From Ilumatobacteraceae bacterium (lineage in GTDB: Bacteria; Actinomycetota; Acidimicrobiia; Acidimicrobiales; Ilumatobacteraceae): a DNA stretch of 26,793 nucleotides. The notes beneath the pieces were generated by a model. It was not told where the DNA came from, did no database searches, and worked only from the letters and a program-made list of their open reading frames with translations. This document shows positions 722-4,198 of the stretch, in pieces (position 1 is the first letter of the stretch; each line of letters opens with the position of its first letter). The position numbers and the translations under genes were made by a program. The DNA is taken from contig JBIKNT010000001.1 in the NCBI GenBank assembly GCA_044358465.1, forward strand, positions 1 through 26,793, written 5' to 3'.

Positions 722-1357
722 ATGGCACTTCGACTCGGCGATACCGCCCCCGACTTCACCGCAGAAACCACACAAGGCACCATCAACTTTCATGAATGGC
801 TTGGCACCTCGTGGGGCGTACTTTTTAGTCACCCCAAAGACTTCACCCCAGTGTGCACCACTGAACTTGGGTACGTAGCAAAAATCAAACCAGAGTTCGA
901 CAAGCGCAATGTGAAAGTCATCGGCTTATCTGTTGACAATGTTGAATCGCACCTGAAGTGGGAAGGCGACATTGGCGAGACACAAGGAACACCTGTGAAC
1001 TTCCCCATGATCGGCGACCCAGAGCGCAAGGTCAGCGACCTGTACGACATGATTCACCCCAATGCAAGTGACACCATGACCGTGCGTTCAGTATTTGTTA
1101 TTGGACCCGACAAAAAGGTGAAGCTCACCATTACTTACCCAGCATCAACTGGCCGCAACTTCGACGAAGTGCTTCGCGTCATCGATTCATTGCAATTGAC
1201 TGCGCAATTCAAAGTGGCCACACCTGCCAACTGGAAAGATGGCGGCGACGTCATCATCGGTGCAGCTGTGTCTGACGATGAGGCAAAGACGCTGTTCCCA
1301 CAAGGCTGGACAACCGTCAAGCCTTACTTGCGCGTATTGCCACAACCTAAGAAATAA
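722..1357 (+). CDS. 1-Cys peroxiredoxin (Prx6 / LsfA-like)
   Basis: FSHPKDFTPVCTTE peroxidatic motif, YPASTGRNFDEVLR and ATPANW. AAGGAG Shine-Dalgarno upstream. Confidence 0.93.
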   Translation: MALRLGDTAPDFTAETTQGTINFHEWLGTSWGVLFSHPKDFTPVCTTELGYVAKIKPEFDKRNVKVIGLSVDNVESHLKWEGDIGETQGTPVNFPMIGDPERKVSDLYDMIHPNASDTMTVRSVFVIGPDKKVKLTITYPASTGRNFDEVLRVIDSLQLTAQFKVATPANWKDGGDVIIGAAVSDDEAKTLFPQGWTTVKPYLRVLPQPKK

Positions 1358-1368
1358 TTTTTACCGAC

Positions 1369-1878
1369 TCACCCCAGCAAGTTTTTCTCTACCCATTCGC
1401 GCACTTGTGGAGCAAGAAAGTGGAGAAACTGCTGGGGTGTTTCGCGTATTTGGGTGGCACTAATAGGAACATTGATGCGCTCTTCGTCGACCACTACTGC
1501 TTGTGCTTCTAGTCGACGTGCTAGCTCAGCAACATAAGAATCAGAAGAGAACACTGCATGCGGGCCGGCGTCATGCGGCCACTTGCTACGAAAAAGTGCA
1601 ATCCATTTCGCCCACAGTTCATTGTCGTTCCAGTTGGTGTCGAGTTCGTGAGCAACTTCCACCACGGTCACGTTGGCATGTAATTCAGCAAGCCAACCTG
1701 CGCGCAAGGAACCAGGCACTAGTTCCCCTGCACGAGTGTTGACGAAAACCACCAGTGCATCACACTGTGCTGCAGCGGCATCAATAAACCACGAATGCCC
1801 TAAATGTGGAGGGTGGAAACGACCCACAATAAGCCCAGTGGAGAATTGTTCGCGGGGTTGGTCGGTCCGATACGTCAT
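1369..1878 (-). CDS. NadR-like nicotinamide-nucleotide adenylyltransferase / cytidylyltransferase-fold protein (stand-alone NTase domain)
   Basis: GRFHPPHLGH (HIGH-type) motif, VFSSDSY and ISATQIRE. Start reassigned to ATG 1878, which has a GGAG upstream; the longer ORF from 2082 overlaps the nitroreductase. Confidence 0.8.
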   Translation of the reverse strand: MTYRTDQPREQFSTGLIVGRFHPPHLGHSWFIDAAAAQCDALVVFVNTRAGELVPGSLRAGWLAELHANVTVVEVAHELDTNWNDNELWAKWIALFRSKWPHDAGPHAVFSSDSYVAELARRLEAQAVVVDEERINVPISATQIRETPQQFLHFLAPQVREWVEKNLLG

Positions 1879-1908
1879 AGGTGTGCTCCACTTGAAACGA
1901 TAGAGCAC

Positions 1909-2502
1909 ATGGACGTCTTCGATGCAATGAACACCGCTCGTGCAATGCGCTTTTTTAAGCCCGACCCCGTGCCGAGTGAACTCATAGAAAAGGTGTTGTG
2001 GGCCGCCACCCGCGCCAGTAGCCCAAATAACACACAAGGCTGGGATTTCATTGTGGTCACCGACCCCGAAGTTCGCAAGCAACTCGGCGCACTCTTTTTG
2101 CCTTTTGCCGAACGTGTTTCCAAATTTCCCGACCCCGGCAACGACACCGACCGACGCACATTAAAAGGCGCGCAAAACCTCGGCGCCAACATGGGAAATT
2201 TCCCATGCATCATTTTTGTTTGTGGTCGCAACATTTACCCTGCCGACAACCCACGTGAACCGTTCATGTATTCAGCGGTGTACGCCGCAAGCCAAAACCT
2301 CATTGTTGCTGCGCGCGCACTGGGTTTGGGCGCAGCCTTCACCACTTTGCACGGAATGGTGGAAGCACAAATTCGTACCATCTTGAATATTCCCGATGAA
2401 ATGTACATCGGCACCACTATTCCCCTTGGCTATCCCGATGGTCCAGAAGGCCCCGTGTCGCGCAAAGATATTTCTGAGGTTGTGCACTACAACGGTTGGT
2501 AA
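1909..2502 (+). CDS. Nitroreductase family protein
   Basis: MDVFDAMNTARAMRFF...AATRASSPNNTQGWDFIVV and AASQNLIVAARALGLGA motifs. Start reassigned to ATG 1909. Confidence 0.9.
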   Translation: MDVFDAMNTARAMRFFKPDPVPSELIEKVLWAATRASSPNNTQGWDFIVVTDPEVRKQLGALFLPFAERVSKFPDPGNDTDRRTLKGAQNLGANMGNFPCIIFVCGRNIYPADNPREPFMYSAVYAASQNLIVAARALGLGAAFTTLHGMVEAQIRTILNIPDEMYIGTTIPLGYPDGPEGPVSRKDISEVVHYNGW

Positions 2503-2506
2503 ACCT

Positions 2507-3022
2507 TTAAGCGCCTGGCGCACTCAACACGGTGCGTTCCATTTCTTCTGGCTCACAGCCCGTCACAATGAGCAACTTGCTAAATCCGTGAAAGAGAGCC
2601 AGTCCAATTCCCATTTCGACAATTTGTTCTGTCGTGAACTCTTTTTTCATTTCTACTTGCACATCGGGCGCCGGTGCACCTTGCGCACCGAGGAATGCGT
2701 CGGCAAAAGCTAGAGCTAGTTTTGAGCGCTGTGGCAAGTCGGTGTCGTCGTAGCCATCGTCAACTTTTTCCACATCGTCTTCCACCATGTTTTCTTGCTT
2801 CACGACCGTGAAGCGCACATTGCGTCAATAACCACAATCGGTAATGCGGGCATTACGTAAGCGCGTGGTTTCTTTGGTGATGTGGTCAAGTTCGCCACGT
2901 TGCCAAAATTCGGCGTACAGAGTAGAGAATGCTTTGGCGAGTTGCGGTTGATGTCCGAGAATAGAACCAAACACTGAACGCGCAGTGGGGTCGACGGGGT
3001 CAAGGCGTGGAGTACTCGACAT
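2507..3022 (-). CDS. AhpD/carboxymuconolactone-decarboxylase-like protein with in-frame TGA (probable selenocysteine, CxxU motif), 171 aa
   Basis: ORFs 2825..3022 and 2507..2818 share a frame and are separated by one TGA (2825-2827), reading KETTRLRNARITDCGY-U-RNVRF. This is the AhpD-like CxxC position, and a SECIS-like hairpin follows. Confidence 0.8.
2797..2814 (-). other. Putative bacterial SECIS element (GCUUCAC-GGUC-GUGAAGC)
   Basis: 7-bp perfect stem with GGUC apical loop. The stem begins 11 nt after the UGA. The loop is the same as in the E. coli fdhF SECIS (GCA-GGUC-UGC). Confidence 0.72.
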
Positions 3023-3438
3023 CAGGCGACCTTTTCCAATTTTCCAAAGCCATCACACAGAGCAACATGGAACAACATCGCCAAAATATCGGGAGTAGAA
3101 AAATACTTTCTCAGCTTCTCAAATTGCTCGTCGGTGACGCTGTGTACGTCGAGTACGAACTGTTCAGTGATTTCTAAAATTGCTTTTTCGCCATCGGTAA
3201 ATTCTGGCGACGAGTACCAGTTCTTTAACTTCTCACTCAGTGCGCTCTCAGCGCGTTCTAAGCCGAGCAACTGAGCAACTTGCAGTTCAATGAGGCTCGC
3301 TGTGCGACCTGGTGCCGTGCTACTCGCTTGGCCTCGTAATTCGTCGATGAAGGGTGCCAAATGGGTTTGGGCGCTGGCAATATCGGACGCATTCCACGCA
3401 CCGCTGACCCATGAGTTGCGACCTTCAATATTTGCCAC
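3022..3438 (-). CDS. AhpD/CMD-like paralog lacking the CxxC motif
   Basis: W..SPEFTDGEKAILEITEQF..D...VTDEQFEKLRKYFS C-terminal CMD-like signature. Its stop overlaps the next start (TGATG). Leaderless TAGGCT-6nt-GTG start. Confidence 0.7.
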   Translation of the reverse strand: MANIEGRNSWVSGAWNASDIASAQTHLAPFIDELRGQASSTAPGRTASLIELQVAQLLGLERAESALSEKLKNWYSSPEFTDGEKAILEITEQFVLDVHSVTDEQFEKLRKYFSTPDILAMLFHVALCDGFGKLEKVA

Positions 3439-3451
3439 TAGACAAGCCTAG

Positions 3452-4198
3452 ATGACTTCCACCACCCCCACTCTCGTTGCGGCTGCTGCTGCGCTCAATG
3501 CCTCAAAAATCTACGGAAAAGACGACAGTGAGGTGCGCGCCCTCGACGACGTCACAGTCGACTTTGCCGAGGGCCAGTTCACTGCCATCATGGGCCCCAG
3601 CGGCTCAGGCAAGAGCACACTCATGCATTGCCTCGCAGGGCTCGACACCCTCACCTCGGGCAAAGTGTTCGTTGATGGCACCGACTTGTCGGGGCTTAGC
3701 GACCGTGAACTCACTGTTTTGCGCCGTGAGCAAGTTGGCTTCATCTTCCAGGCCTACAACCTCATCCCTACGCTCACCGCGCTCGAAAACATCACGTTGC
3801 CACTCGACCTCGGAGGTGTTGACGTCGACCAAGTGTGGCTGAACGATGTAGTGCGCGCGGTCAAATTGGAATCGCGTCTCACACATCGCCCCAGTGAACT
3901 CTCTGGCGGGCAGCAACAACGCGTTGCAGTTGCACGTGCACTAGCAAGTCGCCCCAAAATTATTTTTGCCGACGAACCCACAGGAAACCTCGACAGCAGG
4001 TCGGGCGCAGAAATTCTCGCCTTTATGCGTCACGCTGTGAGCGACCTTGGGCAAACCATTGTGATGGTGACCCACGACCCTGTTGCTGCTGCGTATGCCG
4101 ACCGTGTTGTTTTTCTTGCCGACGGAAAAGTTGTTGATGAAGTGACCTCACCAACAAGTGAGCAAGTGCTCGACCGCATGAAGAAACTCGGGTCGTAA
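3452..4198 (+). CDS. ABC transporter ATP-binding protein (LolD/MacB-like)
   Basis: Walker [25 protein letters not shown] signature, [12 protein letters not shown] and VTHD. Confidence 0.95.

Follow-up and report, generated by a model that had tools for sequence, protein, structure and literature searches.

The DNA examined here, referred to as the window, is a stretch of 26,793 nt from an Ilumatobacteraceae bacterium (GCA_044358465.1, contig JBIKNT010000001.1, positions 1 to 26,793), and its source genome is a metagenome-assembled genome (MAG) of 1.74 Mb in 278 contigs that is 83% complete. On the minus strand of the window lie two open reading frames (ORFs) that are separated by an in-frame TGA and that together very probably form one gene, encoding an AhpD-like oxidoreductase with selenocysteine (Sec) at codon 66. 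The predicted gene, its TGA codon and a downstream hairpin of the selenocysteine insertion sequence (SECIS) type are located as follows.

2507..3022, minus strand: predicted AhpD-like selenoprotein gene, 171 aa including Sec66, with its ATG at 3022..3020 and its TAA at 2509..2507

2825..2827, minus strand: UGA codon 66, predicted to be read as Sec (CGY-U, CxxU motif); a conserved TGA, with Cys in homologues

2797..2814, minus strand: SECIS-type hairpin GCUUCAC-GGUC-GUGAAGC, with a perfect 7-bp stem starting 10 nt after the UGA

The sequence, the list of ORFs and a translation with TGA read as U all agree on a single frame, 3022..2507 (minus strand). According to the ORF list, the upstream part (3022..2825) has 65 codons, ending in ...RNARITDCGY, and is followed by the TGA; the downstream part (2818..2507) begins with GTG and has 103 codons in the same frame. 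The TGA at 2827..2825 is the sole stop between the ATG and the TAA, which bears out the initial annotation of this DNA, where the two ORFs were described as sharing one frame with this TGA as their only interruption. The read-through product has 171 residues (...RLRNARITD-C-G-Y-U-R-N-V-R-F-T-V-V-K...), and its AhpD-like domain carries the CxxU motif as C-G-Y-U, in the context C63-G-Y-U66-R-N-V-R70. The further claim that the downstream half lacks a ribosome-binding site of its own is roughly true, as no GGAGG-like run precedes the GTG at 2818, and carries little weight. In a scan of positions 2300..3600, no promoter-like site was found and terminator-like sites were no more frequent than in shuffled sequences.

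The TGA is conserved far beyond the source genome. When 61 related genomes were searched in six frames with the joined protein as query, 21 gave a full-length match interrupted by just one TGA; these are the source genome, 17 other species of the same genus (65-95% identity) and members of three other genera (37-47%). The TGA falls at the same aligned codon in 21/21 orthologues, according to both a regular-expression check and a codon alignment, and the motif surrounding it is nearly invariant: RNAR[IV]TDCG[YF]-TGA-[RK]N[VI]RF. Three more metagenome contigs (L069-L071), reached through matches to 'hypothetical proteins' of 98-106 aa, have the same TGA and the same split ORFs, and their proteins are 50-57% identical to that of the window. 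Overall, 24 loci have a TGA at codon 66 (21 genomes and three contigs, 37-95% protein identity), and an identical arrangement in 24 loci is far beyond chance. The recurrence of the same TGA across genomes and contigs therefore excludes a sequencing error or a strain-specific nonsense mutation. Further, the ratio of nonsynonymous to synonymous substitution rates (dN/dS; Nei-Gojobori, against close species) lies between 0.007 and 0.04 upstream of the TGA and between 0.06 and 0.10 downstream of it; because it is low on each side, both halves are coding and under purifying selection.

Full-length database homologues have Cys in place of the TGA codon. Nine of 77 database homologues are full length (155-182 aa), and all nine have Cys at column 66, within an invariant TDCG[YF]C-RNVRF. 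Most of the others are C-terminal halves of 94-108 aa, evidently Sec forms cut by gene callers. More broadly, an exhaustive profile search returned 3385 cluster representatives at E<=1e-3, of which 637 have E<=1e-10; within the 150 best representatives, 94 contain CxxCxxxR, six stop exactly at ...DCG[YF] as N-terminal pieces, and about 30 begin at [MV]RF, right after the TGA position. This breakdown into Cys forms and cut pieces indicates that Sec/Cys exchange at codon 66 is common in the family. The expectation in the initial annotation that homologues would show Cys or TGA at codon 66, with conservation on both sides, is thus borne out by nine full-length Cys proteins and 24 TGA loci. Likewise, the gene is split by standard annotation just as had been proposed, most database homologues being C-terminal halves labelled 'hypothetical protein', accompanied by N-terminal pieces of 65 aa.

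The hairpin downstream of the UGA is under constraint of its own. In E. coli fdhF, the minimal SECIS is an upper stem-loop lying some 11 nt from the UGA, and SelB contacts its apical GGUC loop. We take the spacing and GGUC loop of the window hairpin to resemble this minimal element; they differ in that only a 7-bp stem, without the bulged U, is evident in the window. Across 19 orthologues (15 distinct sequences), 105/105 pair cells of the stem are paired. One pair alternates between U-A and the wobble U-G, and another changes in a compensatory manner from A-U to G-C, at the cost of Thr to Ala and Val to Ala substitutions in the protein; contigs L069-L071 share this G-C variant. No orthologue carrying this hairpin deviates from GGUC in the loop. 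Synonymous variation is a stronger test of the hairpin constraint than covariation. In particular, of 55 columns whose amino acid is degenerate and invariant in 19 genomes, only five keep a single codon, and these are located at positions -1, +1, +4, +5 and +7 from the UGA; there are only six such columns between -1 and +7, and the hypergeometric chance of finding five frozen codons there is about 2e-6.

The hairpin is missing from the four Cys-form genes examined, and the most distant Sec forms (L030 and L031) have other downstream hairpins instead. An Rfam scan of 2450..3500 at E values up to 10 returned nothing relevant to the hairpin, as expected, since Rfam is not known to contain a bacterial SECIS family matching such a hairpin. 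A genome-wide scan for the combination of a TGA, a redox motif and a hairpin yielded 197 candidates, most of which were noise from non-coding frames; only the window gene and a paralogue on contig C18 were convincing, and the scan is unusable as a census. Overall, the window gene has a downstream stem-loop with a G in its apical loop and constraint at the RNA level, as looked for in a SECIS, and conserved apical-loop guanosines were noted in bacterial SECIS elements in the Sargasso Sea study (PMC1088965).

The source genome also contains the machinery for decoding UGA as Sec. The initial annotation had proposed a search for selA, selB, selC (tRNA-Sec) and selD, and all four were found, the three protein matches scoring above their curated cut-offs.

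C26:8109-9182: selA, 345 bits

Directly downstream of selA: selB, a 579-aa frame with 290 bits and a separate C-terminal match

C35: selD, 316 bits, without an internal stop

C97: tRNA-Sec with anticodon TCA, in one copy, detected by ARAGORN and by Rfam RF01852 (65.8 bits, with a gathering score of 47)

Of 61 genomes sampled across the order, 47 have a SelA match above the Pfam cut-off, and all 24 genus-mates are among them. The statement that selenocysteine use is sparse in Actinobacteria consequently fails for Acidimicrobiales, where, judging from these matches, the Sec trait is common and not rare; in the sister order Actinomarinales, universal Sec machinery has been reported (2026 preprint, 10.64898/2026.04.03.716425). 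In the source assembly (83% complete), internal TGA codons are absent from selD and from all molybdopterin-oxidoreductase matches, and a SelW/Rdx match was not found, so the Sec machinery of this genome seems to serve only selenoproteins of the thiol-oxidoreductase type. The genome thereby departs from the rule, formulated in 2006, that FdhA or SelD is present in every selenoproteome (PMC1794560), having no TGA in either kind of match.

The paralogue on C18 belongs to a second AhpD-like module.

C18:2037-2989 (L068:238-1190): a Cys-less gene resembling the partner gene described below, followed by a gene with C-K-T-UGA-L-S-V-R (CxxUxxxR)

The first of these genes encodes a protein that shares 34% identity with the window partner across 100 residues; the second has a 7-bp hairpin 10 nt after its UGA and itself ends in TGA, and it recurs, with its internal TGA, in many genus-mates. 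Two other candidate selenoproteins in the assembly each have an AhpC-TSA (Prx/Trx-like) match with one in-frame TGA. The first is at C201:8859-9173 (plus strand), with the context WASW-U-GC; the second is at C128:30-275 (minus strand), with the context APY-U-GTC and a lipoprotein-type signal peptide. These two candidates resemble the 'Prx-like (UGC-containing)' and UxxC Prx-like families of the Global Ocean Sampling (GOS) survey.

The predicted protein has the expected fold. The AlphaFold2 model of the 171-aa protein (pLDDT 87.9, pTM 0.84) is all-helical and AhpD-like, and its best Foldseek matches are Atu0492 (2gmy) and PA0269 (2ijc, 7xw1), with target-normalised template modelling (TM) scores of 0.79-0.82. 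When the family profile was compared with PDB sequences, the same two proteins were retrieved, PA0269 (2ijc/2o4d/7xw1) at E 1.5e-12 and Atu0492 at 3e-11. A hidden Markov model alignment, combined with published numbering (PMC3141380), maps the active site of the window protein onto PA0269 as E51=Glu36, C63=Cys48, Y65=Tyr50, U66=Cys51 and R70=His55. The CxxU therefore aligns with the catalytic cysteines, the relay Glu is present and 4/5 proton-relay positions are kept, the exception being Arg70. A relay His four residues past the second Cys has been called invariant and essential (PMC3141380); Arg is found at this +4 position in the window protein, in all nine full-length Cys homologues and in the C18 paralogue, and these proteins therefore form a distinct CxxC/UxxxR clade of the AhpD-like superfamily. 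The description in the initial annotation of an AhpD-like CxxC followed by a conserved Arg thus fits this subfamily only, as canonical AhpD has His at +4 (PMC3141380).

Several neighbouring genes bear on the function of the protein.

3022..3438, minus strand: Cys-less AhpD-like partner gene, 138 aa, whose stop (TGA 3024..3022) overlaps the ATG of the selenoprotein gene (TGATG)

1369..1875, minus strand: cytidylyltransferase-like (NMN adenylyltransferase-like) gene, Pfam CTP_transf_like, the downstream neighbour on the same strand

722..1357, plus strand: 1-Cys peroxiredoxin (Prx), a candidate redox partner, Pfam AhpC-TSA plus 1-cysPrx_C

The TGATG overlap between the partner and selenoprotein genes is kept across the genus, and a small gene homologous to it lies upstream of both the Cys form in contig L050 and the Sec forms of contigs L069-L071. 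The partner and catalytic families are homologous, but the partner family lacks the 16-residue CxxC segment (hhalign 95.4%, E 1.7e-8), and the AlphaFold2 model of the partner (pLDDT 82.5) matches the same AhpD-like structures with TM scores of 0.63-0.71. A search of PDB sequences with the partner profile found nothing, its AhpD-like nature being visible only by profile-profile and fold comparison. Moreover, the two domains also occur as one chain: 32 of the 150 best representatives are 280-376 aa long; in most of them two stretches match, and in many the better-scoring stretch is in the C-terminal half. The partner is homologous to the N-terminal half of one of these long proteins, P0080 (hhalign 96.6%, E 5.7e-10). 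The fusion of partner and catalytic domains supports a physical complex of the two proteins. The long upstream 'open frames' of some relatives were also considered as partner fusions and rejected; they are stop-free alternative frames, and the partner is encoded in another frame with the same TGATG.

Three observations concern the partner domain elsewhere. Two database proteins longer than 200 aa, P0103 (219 aa) and P0160 (236 aa), stop exactly at ...DCG[YF] and look like partner-catalytic fusions themselves cut at the Sec UGA. In L050, L069, L070 and L071, all from outside the genus, the partner and AhpD-like pair directly follows, on the same strand, a gene for a guanylate-cyclase/AAA_16/TPR protein of about 1150 aa, with a 4-nt overlap between that gene and the partner gene; this arrangement suggests that the three genes are co-transcribed. 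On a Cys-form contig, a 368-aa ABC_tran gene (L052:898-2004) has a C-terminal end similar to the partner (33% over 52 residues) and may be an ABC ATPase fused to a partner domain.

Within the genus, the gene order is fixed as ABC ATPase, partner, Sec-AhpD, nitroreductase (opposite strand), cytidylyltransferase-like and 1-Cys Prx (opposite strand). L069 and L070 have the partner followed by Sec-AhpD, the cytidylyltransferase-like gene and the 1-Cys Prx, the Prx being 86-88% identical to that of the window, and L050, with its Cys form, keeps the partner and the cytidylyltransferase-like gene, the latter directly downstream of the AhpD-like gene. As listed, ORFs 1369..2082 (minus strand) and 1804..2502 (plus strand) overlap; the cytidylyltransferase-like gene probably starts later, near 1875, and so does the nitroreductase gene, near 1909. 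The nitroreductase and selenoprotein genes are convergent, and the former ends 4 nt away from the stop of the latter.

Altogether, we put the probability at about 90% that 3022..2507 (minus strand) is a single gene whose product is a genuine AhpD-like oxidoreductase with Sec at codon 66, as read from its sequence and its relatives. Conservation of the UGA, Cys/Sec exchange, a constrained hairpin, a full set of Sec machinery, an AhpD-like fold in which Sec66 takes the second catalytic position and a conserved coupled partner are established. The initial proposal of a Sec-containing thiol/selenol oxidoreductase is thus supported, its homologue and Sec-machinery checks having both come out in favour. 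By analogy with E. coli fdhF, the hairpin with its GGUC loop would recruit SelB-GTP-Sec-tRNA(Sec) to UGA 66, and the genome's own selA, selB, selD and tRNA-Sec would supply the decoding machinery. Sec66 would then occupy the second catalytic Cys position of AhpD-type enzymes (Cys51 in PA0269, Cys133 in M. tuberculosis AhpD); Cys133 was reportedly identified as the nucleophile of M. tuberculosis AhpD by Koshkin et al. in 2003. In the mechanism we propose, attack of the Sec66 selenolate on an oxidised substrate would give an adduct that Cys63 resolves to an intramolecular selenenylsulfide, with Arg70 in place of the canonical relay His, and a reductant would then reset the site. The enzyme is probably a hetero-oligomer with its coupled Cys-less partner (3438..3022), given the conserved translational coupling and the natural fusions of both domains.

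Several results weigh against parts of this interpretation. The source genome is only an 83%-complete MAG, and selenium in the protein is predicted from sequence. The hairpin sits within coding sequence, and its formal covariation is modest, with a single compensatory pair and an observed score that was reached in 27/500 shuffles. The protein does not reach the gathering score of Pfam CMD (PF02627; 20 vs 23 bits), a marginal miss, as the full-length Cys homologues have precomputed PF02627 matches. It also misses every NCBIfam cut-off, scoring 22.2 bits against 81.8 for TIGR01926 and 17-19 bits against 110-310 for NF053654, NF041238 and NF041047, for which its relatives reach at most 65 bits. 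The relay His (His55 of PA0269, His137 of AhpD) is replaced by Arg70, and the chemistry may differ from that of AhpD. With respect to the proposed redox partner, the Prx gene lies on the opposite strand from the Sec-AhpD gene, its linkage within the genus is plain synteny, and there is no Prx within the 1.5-kb flanks of the distant Sec-form loci L029-L031. As the Prx is linked genus-wide and in L069 and L070, and not in the flanks of L029-L031, the linkage is recurrent and not universal.

The likeliest substrate would be the sulfenic acid form of the linked 1-Cys Prx (722..1357), a tentative assignment that falls somewhat short of an even chance, and direct reduction of hydroperoxides is the main alternative to Prx recycling. 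The more specific proposal that the heteromeric selenoenzyme is the dedicated reductant of the linked Prx6-type 1-Cys Prx in freshwater Acidimicrobiia is doubtful. The odds are about even that the gene encodes a real selenoprotein that does not recycle the Prx and acts as a stand-alone hydroperoxidase or on some other substrate, in the manner of the CMD-family debrominase Bmp8, which appears among the fold and sequence matches. The change from His to Arg at +4, the second partner and CxxU module on C18 and the Prx-free flanks of L029-L031 are consistent with such a role, as is the weak direct peroxidase activity of PA0269 (PMC3141380); in contrast, M. tuberculosis AhpD is a peroxiredoxin reductant (PMC3141380), and the Prx linkage recurs in L069 and L070, whose Sec-AhpD proteins are only 50-52% identical to that of the window.

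Explanations that dispense with selenium fare far worse. It is highly improbable that read-through of the UGA takes place without selenium, for instance by suppression that is near-cognate or independent of SelB and inserts Cys or Trp, or that TGA is a sense codon throughout. Cys at codon 66 does work in homologues, but a SECIS-type hairpin with frozen synonymous sites and the presence of selA, selB, selD and selC point specifically to Sec; moreover, TGA ends both the partner gene (3024..3022, conserved in relatives) and the C18 paralogue, and long conserved genes have no internal TGA. Improbable in the extreme is that the TGA is a true stop, so that the locus would produce a 65-aa peptide and a separate 103-aa protein from GTG 2818, as a split AhpD-like protein or a decaying gene. 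Gene callers annotate the locus in this way in every public record examined, and the GTG lies 2 codons past the TGA; however, neither piece would contain the second catalytic Cys, the downstream starts differ between records (pieces of 94-108 aa), the Cys-form orthologues are single chains, the TGA is unchanged in all 24 loci despite saturation of synonymous sites elsewhere, and the conserved hairpin and full Sec machinery would be left without a role. An alternative genetic code was rejected, as TGA terminates neighbouring genes. The explanations without Sec are therefore unlikely, because the TGA is frozen, TGA ends neighbouring genes, and the hairpin and Sec machinery would otherwise be roleless.

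The Sec-encoding reading of the locus has consequences for annotation and for physiology. In an entire genus of abundant freshwater Acidimicrobiia, and in many other metagenome lineages, public records list the gene as a pair of hypothetical proteins. None of the curated NCBIfam models attains its cut-off, and a family model that accepts either U or C in the CxxU motif would put many of these records right. AhpD-like proteins with CxxC/UxxxR make up a large clade in which Arg stands in place of the 'essential' relay His. Further, the recurrent linkage to a 1-Cys Prx provides a testable candidate for that enzyme's reductant. If the enzyme is indeed a heteromeric Prx reductant, this would identify a protein that physiologically recycles 1-Cys peroxiredoxins in bacteria, and it would help explain why Sec machinery is kept in small genomes where Sec-FdhA and Sec-SelD are not found.

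AhpD-like CxxU selenoproteins have been known since 2005, and the window gene is an unannotated further member. The Sargasso Sea study of that year found 27 AhpD-like CxxU sequences (COG2128), plus families with a CMD domain and a 'hypothetical protein 1' family (PMC1088965), and the GOS survey of 2008 counted 299 'AhpD-like 1' and 70 'AhpD-like 2' sequences, both families occurring in marine and non-marine samples and AhpD-like 2 being more abundant in the latter (PMC2398784). Alkaliphilus was reported to have one AhpD-like selenoprotein (PMC1794560), and AhpD-like selenoproteins are listed again in a 2026 review (PMC13188914). Compared by their published descriptions, the window protein shares with these selenoproteins the AhpD/CMD type, Sec as the second residue of the CxxU pair, widespread Cys homologues, a SECIS hairpin just downstream with an apical-loop G, and a gene split by gene callers; it differs in that its clade has Arg for His at +4 and combines a catalytic subunit with a Cys-less partner. 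The new details are modest: the Arg-for-His clade, the coupled Cys-less partner that is fused elsewhere, and the Prx linkage in several lineages.

Characterized proteins show the same mixture of likeness and difference. PA0269 (2ijc, 2o4d, 7xw1) and Atu0492 (2gmy) are the best structural and sequence matches; relative to them, the window protein has Sec for the second Cys and Arg70 for His55, and whereas they are homo-oligomers of one chain type, the window system has a dedicated Cys-less paralogue. M. tuberculosis AhpD (1gu9), the reductant of AhpC, is alike in its CxxC-type site, all-helical CMD fold and genomic association with a peroxiredoxin; however, it is a weak structural match (TM 0.49) with a permuted topology (PMC3141380), and the neighbour in the window is a 1-Cys (Prx6-type) Prx on the opposite strand instead of an AhpC in the same operon. 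Among the curated NCBIfam models for AhpD-type (seleno)proteins, NF053654 (YciW-related), NF041238 (AhpD_rel_CFYUT, 357 positions) and NF041047 (GSU3128 family) have weak similarity over the catalytic domain. In particular, the window protein matches the C-terminal half (positions 216-338) of the two-domain NF041238 model, which parallels the architecture of partner and catalytic domain.

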